DNA from: Patescibacteria group bacterium
GTDB lineage: Bacteria; Patescibacteriota; Dojkabacteria; J137
Assembly: GCA_016861265.1 (NCBI GenBank)
Contig: BOLA01000001.1
Coordinates: forward strand, 267,569-331,568
Reading direction: 5' to 3'
DNA: 64,000 bases
The translations under genes were made by a program, and so were the position numbers. The notes beneath the pieces are model-generated. The model was not told the origin of the DNA. It did no database searches and saw only the letters and a list, made by a program, of their open reading frames with translations. Position 1 is the first letter of the stretch, and each line of letters opens with the position of its first letter. Shown one piece after another: positions 9,599 through 64,000 of this stretch.

Positions 9599-10792
9599 TC
9601 ATTCTTCAACGTGGTGACGACGTCCGGCAGATACAAGTCCACCATTGCCATTGAGTATGACCTCAAAGGAGGTTTCACCGTTCTGGAACGCGTGCCATTC
9701 GATCTCATTGCTGGTATTCCAGTTATGAGTTCTGCCATCGGCTGTAACCAGAACAATACTGTAACTTTCGGTATTGTTACCCGAAAGTCTTTCTTGCTCG
9801 CCGTTACGCCCCAGCGTATAGTCGCTATACCAATACGGTTCCCAATCGTTCCCAGACGACGTTAGATTCCTGCTAAATACCCACCGCTGCACTTGAAAAC
9901 GGTACACAGTTCCGTACACATCACGGTATGAGTAATCCGGCACAGTACGATAGCCACTGATGTAGCTTTCGGTACGTGTCTTTGGTGTGCAGGAACGAGT
10001 ATACGACCCGTTTGGGTTCTGGCTTGTAGTACATGATTCTCCATCAGAAACCGTCATTGAGCTATAGATTGGCTCTTGGTGCGATCCCGATTGGTAACGT
10101 TCTTGCCCCACAACTTCTCTAGCGCTAGTGCAGGAACGACTCCCGGTCGGGCAACCCGACTGGTTGTTATCGTTGACCCAAGTGTAAACTTCCACCGGCA
10201 TGGTACGTGACCATGATACTGATTGAATAGTTGCCGGCAAGGACTGCCTTACAATAAACTCACGATAGCCCCAGATTCCGCCCACAACAAGCAGTAGTCC
10301 AACCGCAATAATAATTAGCAGTTGGGGGATACTAAAGCTGGACAAATTGAACTTGGGACCCTGTCTTGGTTCGTAGCTTGGGTAACTTTCGCTCACAAAA
10401 TTGTAGCGTGGCTCTTCGTCGGTCTTGTGGTCGTAATCGATAGCACTGCTGGTGTAGGTGCTGGGAGAAGTTGCACTTGAAGCAACTTCTTTCGCAACAC
10501 CGGCTTTGGATGCTCCGCATTTGTCGCAGAAATTATCCTCGTCCGGATGCACGCCGCGACAGAACCGACATTCCCAAACACCCTCGCGCCGTTCAATTCT
10601 GCCGATTACCTCGGCACTGTGAATTTCGTAAGCAGAAATTTCGCTCTCGTCCGGCATGCGTGTGTCAGGATACCCGTTTGACTTTAACGGCATGTCCTTT
10701 CCACAGCTTGGACAGTGCAACTGCTCACTTATCAGCTTCGATTTCCCACAATTTGGGCAATCCCATAAACCGAAGAAATGTGTATCGGTCAT
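9599..10792 (-). CDS. membrane protein with two N-terminal zinc-ribbon motifs (GC-rich island A)
   Basis: CPNC..CPSC and CRFC..CDKC pairs, single TM (IPQLLIIIAVGLLLVVGGIWGY), about 200-aa extracytoplasmic tail; about 58% GC with GC3-rich codons versus about 33% background. Confidence 0.55.
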   Translation of the reverse strand: MTDTHFFGLWDCPNCGKSKLISEQLHCPSCGKDMPLKSNGYPDTRMPDESEISAYEIHSAEVIGRIERREGVWECRFCRGVHPDEDNFCDKCGASKAGVAKEVASSATSPSTYTSSAIDYDHKTDEEPRYNFVSESYPSYEPRQGPKFNLSSFSIPQLLIIIAVGLLLVVGGIWGYREFIVRQSLPATIQSVSWSRTMPVEVYTWVNDNNQSGCPTGSRSCTSAREVVGQERYQSGSHQEPIYSSMTVSDGESCTTSQNPNGSYTRSCTPKTRTESYISGYRTVPDYSYRDVYGTVYRFQVQRWVFSRNLTSSGNDWEPYWYSDYTLGRNGEQERLSGNNTESYSIVLVTADGRTHNWNTSNEIEWHAFQNGETSFEVILNGNGGLVSAGRRHHVEE

Positions 10793-33273: not shown

Positions 33274-35187
33274 TCAATTTGTGTTATCCGTTCCTGGTAA
33301 CCCAATATTAACTGCTGGAAGAAATATTTTTTCTAAAAACAGCAGTGTTGCAATACCCCTATAACCTTCATCCCAGAAAGTTCCTGAGTAATCAATTAGA
33401 TTCGAATGCTCAGTCTGGACCTGCTTAGCTCCAGGGTAAAATCGCTTATAACCTTTATGCATTAGTCTACATTGTAATATATCCATTTCTAATTGCCTTA
33501 AAAATTGAGTTCGAATTTGTGGTTCTTCTACTCCAAATCTATTTAAATTAAAGTATTTCGATATTATATTTGAATAAATATCTCTTAACTCCGGGCAACC
33601 ACCTATCCATAAACTATTCATTAATATATGAACTTCTAAAGGTCCAAGAATATTTTCTTCTCTTGGAACATCTCTGAAACCATAAATGCCATTATGTTTA
33701 TATAGCCAGAATTCAAGAATTTTATCAATGCCGTTTATCTCAGGGATAGTTTGCCTTAACAAATCCATTATCTCAGAACGTTTTTCCCATGGAGTTTCTG
33801 GCTTAAAGAAAATTGCCATATCTATATCTGAGTTTGTACCTGCATATCCTTTTAGCCTTGAACCAAAACCAATAACAAATGGATAAACATATTTTGAGAG
33901 CTCATAGCTTTGCTCTATTCTTTTTGCAACAATTGCTAATAATTTAAAGTCCTTATTTATTAATTGTTCACTACTGACTGCTTGGGCTTGGGATAAATCT
34001 GTTAATTGGAGTCCCAAATTTGTAAGATACTCTTTAGGAACTACATTTAATCTGACTAGATAATTTAATCCCGTAATAATTGCATCTCTAACTTCACCTT
34101 GAGCATTTTGAAAACTATTCTCAATGATTACTCTATAGGTTTGAAATAATCCTTTAGCATCTTCTAAATTTAAATATGATATTCTTTCTGCTGCGGTAAA
34201 AATTGATTTAATTGCTACAATTAAAAAAACATTATCAAAACCCTCCATTAGTGCAATCGATTGTAGGTCTAGATTTGTACTTAATAACTGACTAGCAATT
34301 TCATTAACTGCACTATTAATTATTTGCTCTCTTGAAACTTGCTTCTCCCATTTTGCTCTCGCTCTAGAAATCGTTCTAGCGTAATCAGAATTTAAATCAT
34401 ATTTATTTTCTAAGCTTATTAAGTCGAATTCTAAATGCTTAATTATTTCTTCTAAAGTTTTTGGAACTTCTAACTGAGGCAGTTGTGAAGTAATGTTTTC
34501 ACCTAACAGACTTCTAAAAAGCATGCCTATTATTGGTTTACGGCTAGACATTTCAGTTATTAAATCAATATAAACATCGTCTAGTATTCCGCTATAAGAA
34601 GCAGTCAGCATTCCTTCGAGTATTGATTTTATTAATTCTTCTTCTTGCGATATTTCTAATAGTTCAATTAGTAATTCCGGTTTAATTATTGTAAGTTTGA
34701 GAAATATTGGAATTAAATGAGCTATTTTTCTTACTCGCTCAGGAATTCCCAATCCAGGTTCTAGAACATCACCATCTACAAAGTTTGCTCTTATGTCACT
34801 TTCGTGAAGTAATCTTATAAATCCAATTTCGATTAGTTCTTTTAATCTAGTCTGCAAATTAAATAACTCATGTTCGAAAAGAGAATATGGAAAATATAGA
34901 AGTATTCTAGAGTTATTTGTATCGAGTTCTAAAAAATCAGCTAGTTGAGTGTATAATGATAGTAATTCCTCTGATGTTACTTCTTGTTGTAAAGATTTTT
35001 TATGTAGAATACTTCTCAAATTACTTGAAAAACTCTCTCTTTGCAAAGCCTGGTCAACTAAATCTGGATTTATCGTAATATCAGTTGGCAATAAATCATT
35101 AGTTAAATAATTTTGAGTTGTTAAAGGTTCAATTAAATGTACAGAACCTACACCTTCTATATTTTTAATTAGATCTGATTGATTCAT
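33274..35187 (-). CDS. large nucleotidyltransferase (Pol-beta superfamily) with about 430-aa N-terminal helical region
   Basis: GFGSRLKGYAGTNSDIDMAIFF equals the GS-x9-D-x-D NTase signature; stop/start overlaps the upstream PurA-like gene. Confidence 0.6.
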   Translation of the reverse strand: MNQSDLIKNIEGVGSVHLIEPLTTQNYLTNDLLPTDITINPDLVDQALQRESFSSNLRSILHKKSLQQEVTSEELLSLYTQLADFLELDTNNSRILLYFPYSLFEHELFNLQTRLKELIEIGFIRLLHESDIRANFVDGDVLEPGLGIPERVRKIAHLIPIFLKLTIIKPELLIELLEISQEEELIKSILEGMLTASYSGILDDVYIDLITEMSSRKPIIGMLFRSLLGENITSQLPQLEVPKTLEEIIKHLEFDLISLENKYDLNSDYARTISRARAKWEKQVSREQIINSAVNEIASQLLSTNLDLQSIALMEGFDNVFLIVAIKSIFTAAERISYLNLEDAKGLFQTYRVIIENSFQNAQGEVRDAIITGLNYLVRLNVVPKEYLTNLGLQLTDLSQAQAVSSEQLINKDFKLLAIVAKRIEQSYELSKYVYPFVIGFGSRLKGYAGTNSDIDMAIFFKPETPWEKRSEIMDLLRQTIPEINGIDKILEFWLYKHNGIYGFRDVPREENILGPLEVHILMNSLWIGGCPELRDIYSNIISKYFNLNRFGVEEPQIRTQFLRQLEMDILQCRLMHKGYKRFYPGAKQVQTEHSNLIDYSGTFWDEGYRGIATLLFLEKIFLPAVNIGLPGTDNTN

Positions 35188-54821: not shown

Positions 54822-55301
54822 TTAACTCTGCACTACATATTCCCAATCAGTTATTAAGTTTTGATCTAGTAATTTATTCAATTCCATCTTTATTGAATCT
54901 TTTGAATTCTCTCCATCTAGATCAACTCCTATCATATTAATTTTAGAAGGATCTAAAACGCAACCTAAATCTACGAGATGTTGCATAACTTTTACTTGTT
55001 CTTCCTCTGATAACCTTGTATTAAATATAAATCTTGCGGAAGTATTTTTACTTCTGTACTTCAGCTTCGTTATGATGTCAGTATTTTTATCAACTTCAAC
55101 AACATCATATCTTTGAAACCCATAAACAAAGTGAGGTATTGAAACAATTATATAAAGATTGTCACCTATATAACGTGCTGCAAGATTTTCTTCATCATAA
55201 TCCTTACTCCATACATCGTCCGTAATCTTAACAAGCACAGCAGAATCAGGCTGAAGATTATTATTATGCATATGAGAATGTATATAAAGTCGATTTGTCA
55301 T
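54822..55301 (-). CDS. hypothetical protein, possible orphan immunity protein
   Basis: Position in the array downstream of the Rhs toxin gene; no motif. Confidence 0.3.
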   Translation of the reverse strand: MTNRLYIHSHMHNNNLQPDSAVLVKITDDVWSKDYDEENLAARYIGDNLYIIVSIPHFVYGFQRYDVVEVDKNTDIITKLKYRSKNTSARFIFNTRLSEEEQVKVMQHLVDLGCVLDPSKINMIGVDLDGENSKDSIKMELNKLLDQNLITDWEYVVQS

Positions 55302-55591
55302 GAATGTATTATGAATAACGGTGTATAATCAATTAATTAATTTTCCTAAGCTGTTTTCTTGCTGATTTAATAACACTTCAAGATTCTCTGCTATTTTTGG
55401 ATCATTAGTTGTTGTATTAATAAAACTGTTAATGATTTTCTCTAATTCTGACATAAATTTAGCAGCTAATATAAGTACTCATAATCGGGGTTAGCTATCT
55501 TTAGTTCTATTCTTTCTGCAAACGCCATCGGTCCCATTACTGCATCATCATAAGAAATTGATTTAAATTTTTAAGAAATGTTCATAAATAT

Positions 55592-56167
55592 TTATAGTTT
55601 TCTTGCTACTCTAAGTGAATATGGCTCTTTACTGAATAAGTATGTATTAACAATCTCTCCTTCTTTAAATTTGTGTGAATAAATAATCTTATCTGGCTTA
55701 CTTTCTTCACTAGGAGATACATTAAAAATATTTTCAGGGATTGGCTCTAGTATTTTTAGTATGCGGAACTTTAAATCATTTGTAATTACAGCATAGCTTT
55801 TTAAAAAGCGACTGTCACTATTTATAATTGGTAAATAAACTGTATATAAATAATCCCATTTATTTTTTAGGAAAAATTCTTCAAAGAAAACCTTTAACAC
55901 TTTCTCTAAGTTGTTGAAACTAAAAAACGATAAGAAGTTATCATTAACAACTTCAACCGTCATCCAATCATCTATACTGTTATCAATAGATAACTCAATA
56001 GATTGTGTACTTAAACAAGTGTTCTTTAAGTTAATTTTTAGTTCCATAGTTAAGTAAAAATTAGGATTAACTATAGTTTTAATTGTAATTGGATCCTCAT
56101 ATTCCTTAACTCCATCTCTGTGCAGTTCGTACCACTTAACTAGTTTTGTATAGTTGTCCATAAACAA
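55592..56167 (-). CDS. hypothetical protein, possible immunity protein
   Basis: Abuts 56168-56566 with no spacer; AT-rich, no motif. Confidence 0.3.
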   Translation of the reverse strand: MFMDNYTKLVKWYELHRDGVKEYEDPITIKTIVNPNFYLTMELKINLKNTCLSTQSIELSIDNSIDDWMTVEVVNDNFLSFFSFNNLEKVLKVFFEEFFLKNKWDYLYTVYLPIINSDSRFLKSYAVITNDLKFRILKILEPIPENIFNVSPSEESKPDKIIYSHKFKEGEIVNTYLFSKEPYSLRVARKL

Positions 56168-56566
56168 TTAATTATAAATTAAAAATTGCTCGGCAAGCTT
56201 AAGTAGTTCGCCCTTTAAAAACTGACCTTCTACTAAATAATTTACATCGTCTTTATTTAGGTTTTCTAGAAATCCAAGATACACTAAAGTATCATAATAA
56301 TTTATATTCAAGCTTAAGAGACCCTCTAAAAAACTAATCACATTTTCTCTAACCAAATTATTATTTTTATATAAACCTGTAAAAAAGACCGCTAACTCAC
56401 TTATCAGCAGATAAGGAATAACCTCATTATAAGTTTGAGTATGTTCAATAAGTTCCCTGTTAAACTCTGGAATAGAGTTCTCTATTGTTCGTCTTAAATA
56501 TTCGCCCGGAAATCTATTTGATAAAGTTTTGTTTATATTATTCATTTGGTTTACATTTAAAAGCAT
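56168..56566 (-). CDS. candidate cognate immunity protein of the Rhs toxin
   Basis: Starts 29 nt before the Rhs gene stop on the same strand (classic toxin-immunity arrangement). Confidence 0.45.
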
Positions 56567-59500
56567 CTATAATATCTTCCAGAATACTCCTTGCAATTTC
56601 TCTATCTGACGAGGAAGCATTTGGATTATCTCTTAACCAATTCTCAAGACCATTCTTAATACCTTGCGCTTTTATCGAATGAAATTTATCATGTACAGGT
56701 AAACCTGTTGTCAACTCGTATCTCAATGCATCTGCTGTTGTTCCATTTCCCGTCCTATCTATTTTGTCAATTCCCTTATAAAAGTCATTGACCAAGTTAT
56801 ACAATCTACCCTGGTCCTCTACACTTGGCTTTTTAACAGTGCTTCGCACAGGAAGACAAGGTTTATTAGGAACATTAGTACTTGTAGTACTCGTAATTGC
56901 TTCCTCACTAGCATTAGAATTTATTTCATTAACTAATCTAACCCCTTCCTCTACCACTTTATAAGTAATAACTGCAGCAGCGACTATGGCTGTTGCGATT
57001 ACTATAACTTGAGCAGTGAATACAATCGCCTCCCAAATCACAATAACTGCTGGTACCGCTAACAGAATAAATTCACCACTAAAGTCACTACCATTTATAG
57101 GATCCACAGGATACACATAATCATTCTGAGTTCCTCCTTCCACAGGATCTACCTGCATGAATCTTCCTAATCCAGGTATATACACCCTTGCTCCCATTTG
57201 AGTAAATAGAACACTGAATCTATTTTCTACTTCTCTTCTTTCACTTCCTCCAAATCCAAACTTCTCTACTCCCGTTATTGGTGTTCCAAATGGATCGTAT
57301 CTTTTTAATGTTCCCGTATTATTGGCCAAAACGTTACCAGTTGAGCTCATTATACTATAATCGCTGCTAGAAGTCTTTACAGTCAATAACATACCCGGTA
57401 GGCTTACATATTTCTCTATAATATTATTACTGTTGTCTCTTAAAACATCTGCAGAAGATGAACTGGCTGTAAAGTTATATTTCTTAACATCTGCACCAGA
57501 ATTATAGTTACTATTAATAATTCTACCCATTACATCTCTTGTGTAGGCAATAGATTTATCAGGTTCGGATACTCCAATGTTTTGGTCAGATACATCGTAT
57601 GTAAATGTCATGTTGCCTAGTTTAGTAGTATTGCCATGGCTATCGTAAGTTGGAGTACCGTACTGAGTTGAGCTTACTAATCTATCAGCATTATCGTAAC
57701 AGTAATTATTTGTAGTTGTTACTCCGCTAATAGTTACACTATCGCTTGTCCTATTAAAGTTTTTGTTAGAGTTTGTAAAGCTGCAGTTAGATGCAGTTGC
57801 ATAAGAATATGCGTACTGCCTATCTCCATAGTCGGCTGCAACTAATCGATCTGCTTTATCAAATGTATATGCTTGATTATATTCTGTCGAACCTTGCTTA
57901 AACTTTTGAGAAAGAATCATGCCGGATTGAGACTTTGTTAATTCTTCATCAATTAGTGTTCCGTCAGATTGTCTCCAACTGTATTTAATTGGTCTTTCTA
58001 AAGAATCTCTGGTTGTACCTAAGTATGCGAGCTGACCTGCTTGAGGGTAAGTAATTCCCGAAACCCTGCCATAAGAATCGTAACTTACATTTGCATAAAC
58101 AATATCATCTAGTTCTTTAGACGTAACTTGAGAGTAATTATTGTAGTTCCATTCTTCTTTACCTATGTCTGATTCCTTTTTAATTAGTCTATTTAAGTTA
58201 TCGTAAGTATAAGTAGTTACCATTCCATAACTATCTGTATACTTAATCAAATTACCTACAAAGTCATATTCAGAAATTACTGTTGTTGTTCCATCACTAA
58301 CTGAACGTTTTAAAGGGTTATTACCATAAGCAAAGTTATTGCTCACAGTTTTGCCTGTTTTACCATTGTTTGTAGCTATTACCTTACTAGTTACTCTGCC
58401 TCTGGAATCAAAACTTGTACAATTCCAATTTTCCTTGTTATATCTGCTGCCAACAACTCTTCCTGATGCATCGTAGACTAATTCTGTTTTTATGCCTTCT
58501 TTATTAACTTCATCGGCACGTCTAAAGTTAAAGTTATCAGTGTACAAATCGCCATTAGATCTTAATACATGTAGAATTGTTATGTTTGTTACATTATTAG
58601 GGATTTCGATATCTGTAGCATACGTAGTCCAATTTGCACTGGCTGGTATTGTTGCAAAATCGCTGTAAGTGTAATCCGTACCATTATATTTATACCCAAC
58701 TATTATTGTTGAATTTGCTGTAGATTTATAGCTGTCACTAAAGGTATATGTTTTACCTGGAGTAACTACAACTTCATTATGTACCCATTTGGCATCACCA
58801 TCTACATAATTGCTGATTGTTGTTTTTAAACTTTTTGAGCCATCAGCAGCATCGTTTACATAACTAAATGTTGCAGTATTATTACCCCATGAATTTGTAA
58901 ACCAATTATTAGGATTACCACTTGTTGAAGCTTCTGCAGATGGATTTAATATTATGTTCTGCCTTGTAGCTTTTATAGAATAGTTATCTACATACAAATC
59001 TCCATTTGATCTTAAAACCTGCATTACCACAAGATTTCTTACATTGTATTGGATTGGAATATTTATGCTGTAATTAGTCCAGTTAGCACTAGCAGGTATT
59101 GTTGCGTAATCAACATACTGGTAGTTATTATCGTTGTATTTATAGCCTACTATAAGTGTTGAAGCTACTGTTGATTTGTAACTATTACTAAATGTATAGA
59201 CTTCACCAGGTACAACTGCTACTTCGTCATGCACCCATTTAGCGTCTCCATCAACATAACTACTAACTGTTGTTTTTAAACCTTTTGAGCCATCAGCAGC
59301 ATCGTTTACGTAACTAAATGTTGCGCTGTTATTTCCCCAAACATTAGTAGCCCAGTTATTTGGTACTCCATTTGTTGATGTTTCAGCAGATGAATTTTTT
59401 ACTAAATTTAGTGGAGGAATTTCCATTACAGAAACATCATCCATCCACAGATCACCTACACCTGTAAGTACATGAAATGTTGAAATTGCTGTTGCATTAT

Positions 59501-60500
59501 ATGGTGTTACAAAACTGTAGTTAAACGATGTCCAGTTATTTGCGCTACTAGGCAGGTAACCTAGATAAAGCCAGTCATAAGTATTTACGCCGACTGTAAA
59601 TCTAACCAACACCTGACTATCCGCAGTAGATTTATAGAACTCTTTATAATTGTAAGAAGTACCGGATTTAGCAGGAGCCTCATCACTGTACCATTTAGAA
59701 TCTCCGTCTGTATAACTGCTGATTGCTACGTGGGCGCTTCTTGAACCTGTATATCCAGTTGTAGCATACTCAAAGGTTGCAGTATTAGTACCATATGTAT
59801 CGGTAATCCAGTTTACTGGAGCATTGCTGGCTTCTATTTCAAAAGACGGATTAGCAATTATATTAACATCCTGCACCTGAAAGTTTGGTTCAAATTTACT
59901 CTTTACAAATCCTGCCTGAGATATCAGATCTGTACCTGGAGTACAGACATTGTCTTTTTGTTCGGTTCCACCATAGTAACTGTAGGTAGTTGTTGAACCT
60001 CCAACACTAGATTTAGATAATTGTCTAAGGTACCCAGTACCTTGAGGTTCGTACGTTGAGCTAGTTGAATAATTTAACCCATTTGGATCAAGAACTTTAC
60101 TGGATACTAGTCCATATGCTGGGTCTTGATAGTTAGTTTTAGTTTCAATATTACCTAATTGCTGATCGTAAACAATATTAGTTGTTGGTAAGTTAAAACC
60201 TGGGCTAAGATTAGACCAAACATTTGTTTCTGTAATACCTGGACCTGCCAAAGTTACACTTAGGCTTTTCGTAGTATTAGTTGTAGCCCAATCAATTCTT
60301 ACTCTATATACTTTATTAGCTTCAGCAGTAAATGTTCCGGATTTTTGTGTTGAAGTTGCTGAAGTATAGTTCCAATTATCAATAATTAGTCTGTCATCCA
60401 CATATACCTTCACTCTCTCCGTATGTATTGCTTTAAACGTATATGTTCCATTCTGGTTAAATTTAATTTTACCTGTTAAAGATAGCCCTACTCCATCCAT
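56538..60500 (-). CDS. Rhs/YD-repeat polymorphic toxin: partial PA14-like N-terminus, 3 x CBM4/9-like modules, YD repeats, Rhs core, hydrophobic pre-toxin segment, C-terminal toxin domain of unknown class
   Basis: YD repeats ([38 protein letters not shown]), Rhs core end [27 protein letters not shown], then 36-aa hydrophobic stretch and about 150-aa C-terminal domain (..[31 protein letters not shown]..). Confidence 0.85.
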
Positions 60501-60560
60501 TCCGGTATCTTTTGTAATTGGAAAAGTTTGATTTGCAGAAAAACCAGCAATTTCAACTTC

Positions 60561-60592
60561 TAGAAATAAAAAAAGGAGCTAGTTGCTCCTTT
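60561..60592 (-). terminator. rho-independent terminator between the ASCH gene and the Rhs gene
   Basis: Minus strand AAAGGAGC-aacta-GCTCCTTT followed by TTTTTATTTCTA. Confidence 0.65.
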
Positions 60593-60612
60593 GAGTATTA
60601 ATATTTAATAAA

Positions 60613-60951
60613 TTATGCAATCAGCTCTTTTAACAATTCAAAACAGATTGCAGCAACTCCGAACTCAGATTCATCCTCTTTTCTATAGAATCTATAATAT
60701 ACATTCACAGCAGAATCTAAGTCTTTTGCATCTGGAATTACATTTTTAACACCTTCCATTATCAACATCTCTCTAAAAGAAGGATATTTATTCACCTCTA
60801 AAATTCTAAGCTCCAAATCATTGATTTTAATTAAATCACCAGCAACTAATTCCATATACTTGGACTTACCTAGTCTCCCTTCAACAACTTTTTTACCATT
60901 TCTAATTAGGCTTAAATACGGTTCTTGCACGTCTAGTTCAAGTTTATACAT
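60613..60951 (-). CDS. ASCH-domain (PUA-like) protein
   Basis: EPYLSLIRNGKKVVEGRLGK...GDLIKIND..ILEV pattern typical of ASCH. Confidence 0.55.
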   Translation of the reverse strand: MYKLELDVQEPYLSLIRNGKKVVEGRLGKSKYMELVAGDLIKINDLELRILEVNKYPSFREMLIMEGVKNVIPDAKDLDSAVNVYYRFYRKEDESEFGVAAICFELLKELIA

Positions 60952-61345
60952 AACAAAATACTTATAATTAATATACGGATTTTACCAAAAACGACCATAT
61001 ATAGTGAAATGAAATTTAAGTATATGCCTTGGCACTAAAAGTTCCAAAATGAAATGGGGCTGTTTTTAAAATCGTTGCCAGGTAAGGGGAATTTAATGGG
61101 GTGGAGGAACTCAACTGTTCTGAACATCTCCCCCTCCTTCAGTATTGTATCATTACAATCCATTAAAACTGCTATAACCAAGTATTTCCAATTAGTTGGA
61201 GATAGCGTTGCAGGCGTAAATATGCAAAGAATAGATTATAAATTCTGATATTAATGTATTAGGGAGAAAGCGAATGAACATTAACTATCTTCAAGTCTAA
61301 AATCTTAAACCCTGTTAAAATTATTAAAACATTATTCATATTTGC

Positions 61346-62410
61346 ATGCATAAACTTAATAAAAAGAAAAAAAGATTTTTGATTCTTAAATCTATTAAGA
61401 GACATAAGCATGAATTAGAGCGAAAAAGAAGGAGAAAGATTAAAAAGCTTAATTCTCTTCCAGAGAAAGTTTTGACAAGGAAAAGAAAATCTTATGAGCA
61501 TAAAAAAGATAAGATAGTTCACACTGATTGTATAGCTGACGAGAACTTTTCACTAATAAATAATCCTGATTATATAATTAGTTATTTTGAAAAGGCTCGG
61601 AAAAGTTTCAAAGAAAAACAATATGTGAATTTTGATTTAGGAGGTGTTAAAACAACAGGTCCAGAAACAATATTATTATTGAGTGCATTAATAAATGAAC
61701 CTGAATTTACAAATAATATCCCTTTTAAAGGCAGGTCACCATTACAAGCAGATTTACAACAAATGTTTAGACAAGTAGGATTCTATAATTTTGTTAAATC
61801 CAATGAACTAACTCAATTAACAAATAAAGATTTGCATGGTGAAATAATCCACAGAATAACCAGAAAGAAAGTGGAGAATCAGTTGGCAGGAGATATTTGT
61901 AAATCAGCGGTAAAACATACTTTTAAAAGTGATAATTATATACATAAAACTATTTTGCCAATACTAATTGAATGCATGGCAAATACATGGAATCACGCAA
62001 ATTATGGGACTTCAGAAGATGAATATAATTGGTGGTTATTAGCATACAAAGAACCCAAAACAGACTGCACTAAATTTTGTATTTTAGATTTAGGTGTTGG
62101 AATTTTTGGAAGTTTGAACAGAAAGTTTGCTGAAGGTGCTATAACTTATATTTTCCCAAATAAAAATTTGACTAATTTAAAAAATATTTTTAAAGGTAAC
62201 ACCAGAACAAGAACAAAAGAAGAAAAAAGAGGTAAGGGACTGAATACTATTTATAACCTAGTTAAATCAGATAAAACTATTCAGAACTTTACAATTATTA
62301 CAAATGATGTATTTGCTATAATTGAACAAGATAAAGAAGATGTTTATAAAAAATTAAAAACACCATTTAAAGGGACTTTATATTATTGGGAATTAAGAAA
62401 TAATGGATGA
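61346..62410 (+). CDS. GHKL-type (histidine-kinase-like) ATPase with Lys/Arg-rich N-terminus and uncharacterised middle domain
   Basis: N box ILIECMANTWNHANYG, G1 box ILDLGVGIFG, G2 box GKGLNTIY. Confidence 0.6.
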   Translation: MHKLNKKKKRFLILKSIKRHKHELERKRRRKIKKLNSLPEKVLTRKRKSYEHKKDKIVHTDCIADENFSLINNPDYIISYFEKARKSFKEKQYVNFDLGGVKTTGPETILLLSALINEPEFTNNIPFKGRSPLQADLQQMFRQVGFYNFVKSNELTQLTNKDLHGEIIHRITRKKVENQLAGDICKSAVKHTFKSDNYIHKTILPILIECMANTWNHANYGTSEDEYNWWLLAYKEPKTDCTKFCILDLGVGIFGSLNRKFAEGAITYIFPNKNLTNLKNIFKGNTRTRTKEEKRGKGLNTIYNLVKSDKTIQNFTIITNDVFAIIEQDKEDVYKKLKTPFKGTLYYWELRNNG

Positions 62411-62735
62411 CAAAATAATTATAAAAATTGCTACTGATTTTAATGTCTATCCAGGCGCTAGGTATAAAGCTGATGGAGAATTTTCTGGAGAGGCTTTTTA
62501 TGAAGACTTATTCAAATCTAAATTCCAAAGTGCATGTGATGAGAATAAAATCCTTGTATTAGATCTTGATGGAACATGGGGGTATGCATCTTCATTTATA
62601 TCTGAAATTTTTACAAGAATGGTTAAAGATTTTGGGAAAGAAAAGATTAAAGCTCATTTAGAAATTAAATCAGAAGAAGAACCTTTACTTAAGGACAAGA
62701 TTAATAGAATTATTGATGAAATTCAAGAAGATTAA
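62403..62735 (+). CDS. STAS-like (DUF4325-like) domain protein
   Basis: ..ILVLDLDGTWGYASSFISEIFTRMV.. resembles the DUF4325 core (l.ldf.gv..issSF.dE.f); overlaps the GHKL gene by 8 nt. Confidence 0.5.
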   Translation: MDDKIIIKIATDFNVYPGARYKADGEFSGEAFYEDLFKSKFQSACDENKILVLDLDGTWGYASSFISEIFTRMVKDFGKEKIKAHLEIKSEEEPLLKDKINRIIDEIQED

Positions 62736-63309
62736 TATCATAACTATTCTAGTTTTTCTCCTAGTTTTTGGTGGGGGTTTAATCTTAGGCTTAATTTTAA
62801 GGGACATTGATTACTTCACTTTTAAATCTGAAGTCAGCATTGGTGATATTTCAAGCTTAGCACTTACATTATTTCTTGCATTATTTATACCTTTCTATCT
62901 TGATAGAAAATTAAATAATAGAAGAGTTGAAAAAGATTTGGTTATTGCATTTTTAGATAATTTAATACAAGAGGTGAAACTACAAATTTCTTATATTGAA
63001 GATCTCCATATTTCAAATGAAGTATTAGATGAGAAACAAAAGAAGAAAGTTAATTTGAATCTTAAAAAATTAAGCAATTATTTGGATACCTTAATTGATA
63101 GTTGTGAGAATTATAAAAAGGATAAAGAAATATCTCAGTTGATTGAACAGTTAAAAAATCTAAACTATACCTTCTGGAGAGATTTAACTTTTAACATTGG
63201 TAATACGGACTATAAAATAGACACCGAGTTATTTCAAAAAATAGAACCTACAGTAAATAGCTTTGAGCTAAAACTAAATAAACTCAAATTAACTATAAAT
63301 AATTACTAA
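62713..63309 (+). CDS. membrane protein (2 TM) with coiled-coil domain
   Basis: Overlaps the upstream gene by 23 nt; TM helices at the N-terminus. Confidence 0.4.
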   Translation: MMKFKKINIITILVFLLVFGGGLILGLILRDIDYFTFKSEVSIGDISSLALTLFLALFIPFYLDRKLNNRRVEKDLVIAFLDNLIQEVKLQISYIEDLHISNEVLDEKQKKKVNLNLKKLSNYLDTLIDSCENYKKDKEISQLIEQLKNLNYTFWRDLTFNIGNTDYKIDTELFQKIEPTVNSFELKLNKLKLTINNY

Positions 63310-63311
63310 TC

Positions 63312-63722
63312 TTGAGAAACGGCATAAAAAACGGTAAAAATACACAATTTAGTACAGATAACCAACCAAGTGGAGAGGCAAAGTCCGAAGGATGGAAAAG
63401 AAAAAGGTATGCGCAACAGTTCATGGATAAAGTAATGGAATATCAAGAATTATCATTAGAAGAATTTGAAAGAATTGAAAAAGAAGTAGAAAGATCAAAA
63501 GCTAAATATACAATCAGAGATGTTATGGCAATTAAATATGTTTCAAAAGGTTTAAAAAGTGATAAATTTTTATTGGATTGGGTTGATAGGCATGTGAGTA
63601 AAGCACAATTCAACAAAGAAGACGAGAAGCAAAAAGAACCAATATCAAAATACATTGTAGAAATTGTTGAACCAAAATACAGTCAGGAAGAGATTAGAGC
63701 TTTCAGTGAAAATAAGGTTTGA
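63312..63722 (+). CDS. small basic hypothetical protein
   Basis: 3-nt gap from the upstream gene; KR-rich N-terminus. Confidence 0.35.
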   Translation: MRNGIKNGKNTQFSTDNQPSGEAKSEGWKRKRYAQQFMDKVMEYQELSLEEFERIEKEVERSKAKYTIRDVMAIKYVSKGLKSDKFLLDWVDRHVSKAQFNKEDEKQKEPISKYIVEIVEPKYSQEEIRAFSENKV

Positions 63723-63780
63723 GAAAACAGGCATACCCGTAGTATATTATTTAAAGATTTAACCCATTTAATACAAATTT

Positions 63781-64000
63781 ATGGAAACCAACCTTTTAGT
63801 TGCATTATCAAACTTAATTCAAAATCCAATTACTGATATACTTGCAACTTATAATTCAAGCAATAGAATTAATAATGTTGGTGAGGCTTTGGAATATTAT
63901 GTTAGAGATTTATTTTGTAATACAGTTGGAGAATCTGATTCAAATATTGAAAATAAAATATTAACCCACAGTCAATATTTTTCATACATTGGGAATCAAA
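63781..64000 (+). CDS. hypothetical protein, 5' part only (runs off the window end)
   Basis: ATG at 63781, open to the end of the window (METNLLVALSNLIQNPITDILATYNSSNRINNVGEALEYYVRDLF...). Confidence 0.3.
   Translation, partial: METNLLVALSNLIQNPITDILATYNSSNRINNVGEALEYYVRDLFCNTVGESDSNIENKILTHSQYFSYIGNQ

Follow-up and report, generated by a model that had tools for sequence, protein, structure and literature searches.

The window analysed here is a 64,000-nucleotide (nt) stretch of DNA from a Patescibacteria group bacterium (contig BOLA01000001.1), and near its downstream end lie four consecutive open reading frames (ORFs) on the plus strand, which we refer to as g1, g2, g3 and g4. Our best model for positions 61285-63311 of the window is a three-gene, horizontally mobile and self-contained conflict cassette composed of a kinase (g1), a STAS substrate (g2) and a membrane protein (g3), with g4 belonging to the adjoining element. 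The features of the locus, all on the plus strand, are as follows.

61285-61345, plus strand: leader 5′ of g1, forming the 5′ edge of the exchangeable segment
61346-62410, plus strand: g1, ORF of 354 amino acids (aa), VapK-like, with a polybasic helix, a STAS-like domain and a GHKL domain of the Ser/Thr-kinase type
61346-61507, plus strand: g1 residues 1-54, K/R-rich N-terminal helix, with one predicted helix at residues 6-52 (predicted local distance difference test, pLDDT, 85-97)
61508-61873, plus strand: g1 residues 55-176, STAS-like domain with the secondary-structure order beta-alpha-beta-alpha-beta-alpha
61874-62407, plus strand: g1 residues 177-354, GHKL (Bergerat-fold) ATP-binding/kinase domain, with the N box at 61970-61999, the G1 box at 62087-62101 and the G2 box at 62228-62239
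62403-62735, plus strand: g2, ORF of 110 aa, a VapS-like DUF4325 (STAS-like) protein
62589-62594, plus strand: candidate phospho-acceptor S63 of g2, aligned with S48 of VapS, and the neighbouring invariant S64
62713-63309, plus strand: g3, ORF of 198 aa, membrane protein and putative effector
63312-63722, plus strand: g4, ORF of 136 aa, backbone of the adjoining element

The genes are tightly packed, with g1 and g2 overlapping by 8 nt, g2 and g3 overlapping by 23 nt, and g4 starting 3 nt past the stop codon of g3, just as a preliminary description of this DNA had reported. The region is AT-rich (27-31% G+C) and has a positive GC skew, in which it differs from the minus-strand Rhs locus upstream; a promoter and terminator scan of the cassette region gave a result no better than that for shuffled sequence. 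The preliminary description had treated the four ORFs as a single operon and had proposed that their order be sought in other genomes. All four ORFs are present, but the conserved unit comprises only three of them. When we scanned the GTDB representative genomes for the cassette, we recovered 80 loci, 74 of which have enough downstream DNA to be read, and in all 74 the homologues of g1, g2 and g3 are consecutive, on one strand and tightly coupled, with a 4-nt overlap at the g2/g3 junction in 33. The order g1-g2-g3 is thus kept at 74/74 loci, whereas g4 is not part of it.

The boundaries of the cassette can be read from the Logan contigs L088/L089, which carry a homologue of g4 with 94% identity (10001-10411) that starts with ATG rather than with the TTG of the window. 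Window and L088 share only two matching blocks, 61096-61284 and 63313-63748 (g4), at 94-100% identity, and in L088 the space between them is filled by another cassette, of two genes, with products of 244 aa and 278 aa. Because the similarity to L088 stops at 61284 and resumes at 63313, the exchanged segment spans approximately 61285-63311, that is, g1-g2-g3 with a 60-nt leader. The g4 homologue in L088 is followed by Dcm, an EcoRII-C-like protein, Vsr and a Ser recombinase. We rejected g4 as a cassette member on the basis of synteny, as it has no cassette-adjacent homologue in the approximately 75 loci and stands behind a different cassette in L088; it belongs instead to the backbone of an adjacent mobile restriction-modification island. 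It has no match in Pfam, NCBIfam, PHROG or the phage database and, having been described as a small basic protein, turns out to be just mildly basic (isoelectric point 8.9). By eye only, its N-terminus (NGKNTQFSTDNQP…KRKR) is like those of small terminase-like phage proteins.

The alternative cassette (L088/L089 8441-10004) consists of two overlapping genes in the same slot as g1-g2-g3. Its proteins match no Pfam family, the second giving weak matches of a coiled-coil type, and a gene for an AAA_15/AAA_21 ATPase lies upstream of it; the 244/278-aa pair may be another uncharacterised defence pair. The upstream block shared with the window (61096-61284, corresponding to 8185-8373 of L088) has been kept despite differing flanking genes, and its core of approximately 155 nt (about 61096-61250) is 100% identical, whereas g4 is only 94% identical. 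The block has no Rfam match, is present as a single copy in the window and has an RNA-folding z-score (-1.28) that is not unusual. It contains a 50-codon ORF (MGWRNSTVLNISPSF…RIDYKF*). Possible roles are those of a small gene, of a regulatory region and of a recombination frame for cassette exchange.

Sequence searches with g1 are largely silent. The protein has zero matches in Pfam and NCBIfam, with HATPase_c not reached even at E ≤ 1, and its one strong match in PHROG, phrog_3364 (E = 5e-33), is to a family of unknown function. Because single-sequence and profile searches of the PDB gave no GHKL chain, returning just weak hints of STAS domains, structure prediction was needed for the fold. 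The AlphaFold model of g1 (pLDDT 87.5) contains an N-terminal helix (residues 6-52), an alpha/beta domain (approximately residues 55-175) and a C-terminal alpha/beta sandwich. In a Foldseek search against the PDB, the top matches are to the anti-sigma Ser kinase SpoIIAB (1l0o, 1th8, 1til and 1tid), with E-values from 9e-4, a probability of 1.0 and template modelling (TM) scores of 0.55-0.65. Further down the list are CheA P4, HK853 and other histidine kinases, TopoVI-B and GyrB. With SpoIIAB, CheA P4, HK853 and TopoVI-B ranked in this way, the predicted model confirms the membership of g1 in the GHKL superfamily, with its Bergerat fold and its N, G1 and G2 boxes. The boxes, which had already been noticed in the preliminary description, hold up well in an alignment of 36 homologues, where the invariant residues are E209, N213 and H217 in the N box (ECMxNTxNHA), D248, G250 and G252 in the G1 box (DLGVGI), and R295 and G298 in the G2 box (RGxGL). 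The family is large: clustering at 50% identity leaves 4318 representatives at E ≤ 1e-3 and 1287 at E ≤ 1e-30. We infer that g1 acts as a Ser/Thr kinase.

The N-terminal and middle parts of g1 set it apart from a plain GHKL kinase, as had been remarked from the sequence, where an unusual, highly basic N-terminus and an extra domain were pointed out. Both are real. There are 26 K/R among the first 58 residues in the window protein, and a basic N-terminus is a trait of the family (median length of 53 aa, 36% K/R and a net charge of +16 in 77 homologues); its ligand may be nucleic acid or anionic lipid. In the predicted structure, the extra domain takes a STAS-like form, as judged from the make-up of the hit list, the order of secondary-structure elements and colinearity with VapK (see below). 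Modelled alone (pLDDT 85), it returns a Foldseek list that consists mostly of STAS domains, including SLC26 STAS, 4xs5, RsbV (6m36_B) and SpoIIAA (1thn_B; root-mean-square deviation 3.0 Å, TM-score 0.51-0.55), with no individual match at E ≤ 1e-3, and the g1 family profile has weak matches to the STAS chains 4hyl and 6ki2 in the PDB. A comparison of this domain with the g2 family by hhalign aligns 18 columns with a probability of 3% and gives no evidence of close paralogy between the two.

The product of g2 is a member of the Pfam family DUF4325 (E = 1.1e-10; 41.5 bits against a gathering cut-off of 23), and the STAS-like assignment made for it earlier therefore survives profile search. All 77 homologues keep R20, G60, S64 and F65, and 75/77 have a hydroxyl residue at position 63 (Ser in 42, Thr in 33). 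The STAS domain is followed by a short C-terminal helix, and the protein ends approximately 16 residues past the domain. When the family profile is run against the PDB, there is one significant match only, 9z7o_A (E = 0.005), which is the VapS protein of Escherichia. S48 of VapS aligns with position 63 of g2, and VapS itself scores as a member of DUF4325 (E = 2.7e-17). As a side observation, g2 also matches positions 339-439 of the PHROG profile phrog_5816 (profile length 441), in which DUF4325 is C-terminal in a phage protein of approximately 440 aa; this arrangement suggests that fused versions of DUF4325 exist, possibly kinase–STAS fusions.

The match to VapS leads to a recently described system, VapKSC (Chambers et al., EMBO J 2026, PMC13373217), an operon of VapK (STAS–GHKL), VapS (STAS with a short C-terminal helix) and the PIN toxin VapC. 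VapC is inhibited by VapS, the phosphomimetic substitution S48E frees VapC, and the operon, which is described as toxin–antitoxin-like, protects against one phage (PMC13373217). Using the VapK and VapS sequences from the AlphaFold 3 file in supplement 68 of that paper (PMC13373217), we find that the gene order is the same (kinase, STAS protein, third gene), that residues 55-353 of g1 are colinear with residues 8-291 of VapK over both the STAS and the GHKL domains (hhalign 92%, E = 6.7e-7, 271 columns), and that g2 and VapS share membership of DUF4325, the position of the STAS Ser/Thr and an alignable C-terminal helix. Both systems are mobile and lie near defence genes. The g1 family hidden Markov model (HMM) scores VapK at 23.5 bits, and in a search space of PDB size the g1 profile (A1) gives VapK an E-value of 0.011 and finds no PDB GHKL chain at E ≤ 10. 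Because VapK outscores every chain of the PDB with the g1 profile and VapS is the sole significant PDB match of g2, the two proteins are specifically VapK-like and VapS-like, and g1 and g2 probably form a kinase–substrate pair of the VapK/VapS type.

There are two clear differences from VapKSC in architecture. In place of the PIN nuclease VapC, to which it has no match, g3 is a protein with two transmembrane (2TM) helices and a helical tail, and g1 has a polybasic N-terminal helix of approximately 53 aa that has no counterpart in VapK. The related kinase CapK is an HTH–STAS–GHKL protein (HTH, helix-turn-helix) that is turned on by single-stranded DNA (ssDNA) and phosphorylates a conserved Ser of CapS, a repressor in which STAS is joined to a winged HTH (PMC13373217). 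The cassette shares with CapK/CapS the STAS–GHKL kinase core, the Ser of the STAS substrate (the residue phosphorylated in CapS) and a frequent position beside restriction-modification systems. It differs in that g1 has a single basic helix (residues 1-54) where CapK has its N-terminal HTH, there being no Pfam HTH in g1 or g2, and in that g2 lacks the C-terminal winged HTH of CapS. Because g2 ends just past its STAS domain, it is not a DNA-binding repressor. Furthermore, CapK/CapS lies directly upstream of a larger immune operon under its control, whereas only g3 follows g1-g2 and the genes beyond are not conserved.

We also compared the cassette with the partner-switching systems SpoIIAB/SpoIIAA and RsbW/RsbV, to which the preliminary description had likened it. 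The analogy is apt at the level of the fold, as no structure matches g1 better than SpoIIAB and g2 belongs to DUF4325, so that both sides have a GHKL Ser kinase fold and a STAS protein with a Ser opening helix 2. Unlike SpoIIAB and RsbW, g1 carries a STAS domain of its own and a basic helix, and the cassette is mobile, includes a membrane protein and has no linked sigma factor or PP2C phosphatase. The statement that no system with this gene content had been described has to be amended in part: CapK/CapS and VapKSC are homologous in their kinase and STAS parts, but the literature searched contained none in which the third gene is for a membrane protein. A search for DUF4325, STAS or GHKL together with defence yielded only CapKS/VapKSC and incidental mentions, and neither membrane partners nor DUF4325 are mentioned in the VapKSC paper (PMC13373217). 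On the present analysis, the cassette looks like an undescribed membrane-effector version of VapKSC.

That g3 is a membrane protein, as had been noted from its sequence, is evident from two hydrophobic helices at approximately residues 9-29 (nt ~62737-62799) and 41-63 (nt ~62833-62901), which are followed by a helical tail of approximately 135 aa. The basic residues are placed N-terminally and past the second helix, which suggests an N-in/C-in topology with the tail in the cytoplasm. In a crude hydropathy scan, two hydrophobic segments are found in 56/75 members of the family, and R71, K74, T159 and N196 are conserved. Among 71 g3 homologues, at most 2 are matched by any one Pfam family, and none of the matches is to SLATT, holin, pore or PIN families. 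Matches of the g3 profile to YaxA, Cry6Aa and HlyE in the PDB are insignificant and were rejected as coiled-coil noise.

In its layout, the cassette resembles abortive-infection systems that act through membrane effectors, namely CBASS, Pycsar and Thoeris with transmembrane effectors, RexAB and the 2TM proteins of SLATT, in which a small multi-pass membrane protein is likewise the last gene of a sensor or regulator operon on mobile islands and membrane disruption is the presumed outcome. In our model, g3 would be toxic. The control of the cassette would be different from that of CBASS-type systems, relying on protein phosphorylation and STAS sequestration rather than on a nucleotide second messenger, and unlike SLATT proteins, g3 matches neither SLATT nor any other Pfam or PADLOC family.

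The cassette is widely distributed. The lineages with loci include the candidate phyla radiation (CPR; Saccharibacteria, Paceibacteria, Shapirobacteria and others), Bacteroidota, Acidobacteriota, Proteobacteria and Spirochaetota, and further loci occur in a Vallitalea metagenome-assembled genome (MAG) and in a MAG labelled as Woesearchaeota; CPR MAGs are among the closest homologues of g1, which, together with the relatives of a nucleotidyltransferase-domain protein elsewhere in the window (see below), hints with low confidence that the DNA stems from a CPR bacterium of a poorly sampled lineage. In IMG/VR, 12 viral contigs carry g1-g2, and a small 2TM protein comes next in 10/12, while the remaining 2 end too soon; the third gene is supported by a match to the g3 HMM in 6 contigs, and in the other 4 it rests on ORFs read in two of the 4. 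One of these contigs (L097) has the cassette directly upstream of the terminase genes, and another (L092) has it beside tail genes. Divergent g1-g2 pairs with a membrane protein of one helix are found at the end of a Helicobacter pullorum prophage, beside the integrase (L082, BK070132.1 55217-56904), and on a Leptospira interrogans plasmid (L102, NZ_CP043897.1 48555-50383), where the genes adjoin MNT/HepT and ParB and bear the RefSeq names ‘ATP-binding protein’, ‘STAS-like domain-containing protein’ and ‘hypothetical protein’. In the gene table of the Francisella phage KIRK, a run of a 293-aa protein, a 112-aa DUF4325 protein and a 125-aa transmembrane protein lies between the CI repressor and the integrase (PMC7924643); we liken this run to the cassette by size and table entries only, the 293-aa gene being a candidate counterpart of g1. 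The unit is thus one of three genes that is mobile across phyla, phages and a plasmid.

The third proteins of the Helicobacter prophage and the Leptospira plasmid are shorter than g3 (117-166 aa) and have just one hydrophobic helix. Because of these two proteins, and because the one in KIRK is listed as a transmembrane protein of 125 aa, the membrane partner appears to be more variable than the kinase and STAS parts.

Beyond the three genes, no fourth is conserved. When we clustered 830 flanking ORFs from approximately 75 loci, the most recurrent family was a Ser recombinase, present at just 8 of the 75, and the other recurrent families were HTH_3, C5 methylase, HsdM, HsdR, HsdS, IS1595, integrase and AAA_15/21. 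The commonest families among 140 immediate neighbours are those of restriction-modification (ResIII/HsdR, HsdM, HsdS, C5 methylases and restriction endonucleases), helicases and recombinases or integrases, mixed with housekeeping genes. One locus lies in an island bounded by an integrase, and another adjoins a type I restriction-modification system and a ThsB-TIR gene. A sigma factor or PP2C phosphatase is absent from the ten most recurrent flanking clusters and from the 25 commonest Pfam families of the immediate neighbours, and the flanks of the 75 loci share no conserved PIN gene.

In the window itself, the cassette is flanked by an Rhs locus on one side and by a restriction endonuclease on the other. 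The latter is the ORF running off the end of the window (63781-64000 and beyond), which had been called restriction-like; on contig L087 (516-1175), which extends the window, it matches the Pfam family RE_NgoPII with E = 1.9e-101, bearing out that call. The methylase that partners this type II restriction endonuclease of the NgoPII family must be encoded past the end of the window. The preliminary description had also suggested looking past the operon for a sigma factor or effector, and this search came back empty: neither in the continuation of the window nor in the 75 loci is there a sigma factor or any other conserved partner downstream of g3. Its reading of the locus as a possible conflict module is in keeping with the data, given that the cassette is mobile, lies among restriction-modification, recombinase and toxin–antitoxin genes, and is carried by phages and a plasmid.

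Taking as established the folds, the domain order, the homology to VapK and VapS, the conservation of catalytic and acceptor residues, the strict three-gene unit, its mobility and the exchange of the cassette, we propose a VapKSC-like kinase/STAS switch that gates a membrane effector in place of a PIN nuclease. In this model, the place of VapC would be taken by g3, a small protein that spans the inner membrane with its two transmembrane helices and extends its helical tail into the cytoplasm. In the uninfected cell, g2 would sit on the cytoplasmic tail of g3 and keep it inactive. A signal of infection or damage, perhaps a nucleic acid bound to the basic helix and the groove between the STAS and GHKL domains, would activate g1, which would phosphorylate the conserved Ser/Thr of g2 that opens STAS helix 2 (S63, with the invariant S64 alongside). 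Phosphorylated g2 would then release g3, and free g3 would oligomerise and permeabilise or depolarise the membrane. The outcome could be a stop of growth in which phage replication is aborted, or a penalty for the loss of a mobile element. We place even weight for and against the model in full. The broader claim is that the cassette, which is shared by CPR bacteria, an archaeal-type MAG, many bacterial phyla and their phages, represents an unnamed, widespread anti-phage or toxin–antitoxin system in which Ser/Thr phosphorylation of the STAS protein directly gates a holin-like membrane effector as a ‘kill switch’, with the trigger read by the polybasic helix and a STAS sensor unlike the site at which ssDNA stacks in CapK and VapK; this claim is plausible but tentative, and we hold it to be less likely than not.

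Several observations weigh against this model. The similarity to VapK and VapS is remote, with an hhalign identity of 14% between g1 and VapK and profile-versus-sequence scores of approximately 18-24 bits. The aromatic residue on which ssDNA stacks in the known kinases (F54 of VapK, W68 of CapK; PMC13373217) falls in a column (T103 in the window) that is Q, K, N, T, S or V in 77 g1 homologues, although the column comes from a remote alignment, in which an equivalent residue of g1 may be shifted. Because this column is variable and non-aromatic, the trigger of g1 may differ from that of VapK/CapK. None of the three proteins leads to a related system in PADLOC: g1 matches no model of PADLOC-DB v2, g2 has just weak, non-specific matches in PADLOC, with none to a related system, and the matches of g3 in PADLOC and PHROGs are likewise weak, non-specific noise. 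No known toxin or pore family is matched by g3 in Pfam or in the PDB profile search. There is no phosphatase linked to the cassette, and many of its neighbours are housekeeping genes, the counts of defence families being raw ones.

The closest alternative is that the cassette serves its carrier rather than the immunity of the host, either as a mobile-element addiction or superinfection-exclusion module, which would kill cells that have lost the element or keep out competing phages, or by tuning lysis through a holin-like g3. Such a module would naturally sit where the cassette is found: in the phage genomes L097 and L092, where it directly precedes the terminase genes and adjoins tail genes, respectively; at one end of a prophage, by the integrase; possibly in KIRK, between the CI repressor and the integrase (PMC7924643); and on the Leptospira plasmid, with ParB and the toxin–antitoxin pair MNT/HepT as neighbours. 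The topology of g3, with two transmembrane helices and a charged cytoplasmic tail, is like that of a class II holin, and VapKSC itself is toxin–antitoxin-like. However, chromosomes harbour most of the 80 genomic loci, many of which show no recognisable phage or plasmid genes within 7 kb. At approximately 190 aa, g3 is also much longer than typical holins, and it has no linked endolysin. The mechanism overlaps with that of the gated effector and differs mainly in the beneficiary. We regard a carrier-serving role as rather unlikely. We consider it a little less probable again that g3 is a membrane anchor or sensor for the kinase, reporting, for example, a perturbation of the envelope at phage entry, with the phosphorylation of g2 or of unlinked proteins by g1 as the output. 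STAS proteins such as MlaB and the STAS domains of SLC26 are regulators of membrane proteins and have folds like those seen here, the polybasic helix of g1 could dock on an anionic membrane near g3, and g3 has no recognisable toxin domain. Yet the third gene of the homologous VapKSC is a toxin, and what moves among very distant phyla, phages and archaeal-type MAGs is a set of exactly three genes that has no constant fourth member; an unlinked, host-specific output is therefore unlikely.

Two further explanations start from the fold of g1. One is that g1 is a clamp-like ATPase on nucleic acid of the MORC or TopoVI-B type, whose basic helix binds DNA and to which g2 and g3 are accessory. The strongly basic N-terminus is in keeping with this idea, as are the TopoVI-B, MutL/Hsp90-type and GyrB ATPase domains found lower in the fold-search list, but the top structural matches (probability 1.0) are the Ser kinase SpoIIAB, CheA and histidine-kinase domains. 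Moreover, g1 ends at residue 354 with no transducer domain after the Bergerat fold, and the conserved Ser/Thr of its STAS partner aligns with a proven phospho-acceptor, all of which makes a clamp very unlikely. The other is classical partner switching, with g1 as anti-sigma factor and kinase and g2 as anti-anti-sigma factor. The best structural match of g1 is SpoIIAB, and SpoIIAA and RsbV are among the matches of its STAS-like domain; on the other side, neither a sigma factor nor a PP2C phosphatase is conserved beside the cassette at 75 loci or past the end of the window, the cassette is phage-borne and mobile across phyla, and VapK and VapS are nearer to g1 and g2 than any SpoIIAB/SpoIIAA-type chain of the PDB is. 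We therefore find sigma-factor control to be the most improbable of the explanations.

If the gated-effector model is true, the kinase–STAS switch of CapKS and VapKSC would be a general, modular controller whose output can be a membrane effector just as well as a repressor or a nuclease. A functional hypothesis would then cover a large family (at least 1287 clusters) whose RefSeq labels are generic. The cassette is present in CPR bacteria with small genomes and in phages, whose immune repertoires are poorly known, and, as a compact set of three small genes, it is amenable to direct experiment.

Finally, we note several other genes in the window. The Rhs locus (54822-60951) encodes a 1320-aa Rhs/YD-repeat protein on the minus strand (56538-60500), with repeated N-terminal modules that are carbohydrate-binding-like and a C-terminal toxin region. 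It is followed by small minus-strand ORFs at 56168-56566, 55592-56167 and 54822-55301, which have the look of immunity or orphan cassettes. A minus-strand gene for an ASCH-domain protein (60613-60951; Pfam E = 1.9e-11) separates the Rhs gene from the g1-g2-g3 cassette. Elsewhere in the window and unrelated to the cassette, a minus-strand gene (33274-35187) encodes a 637-aa protein with a nucleotidyltransferase domain (PF18765, from precomputed annotation); its named relatives, at most 39% identical to it, come from MAGs of Patescibacteria and Uhrbacteria.

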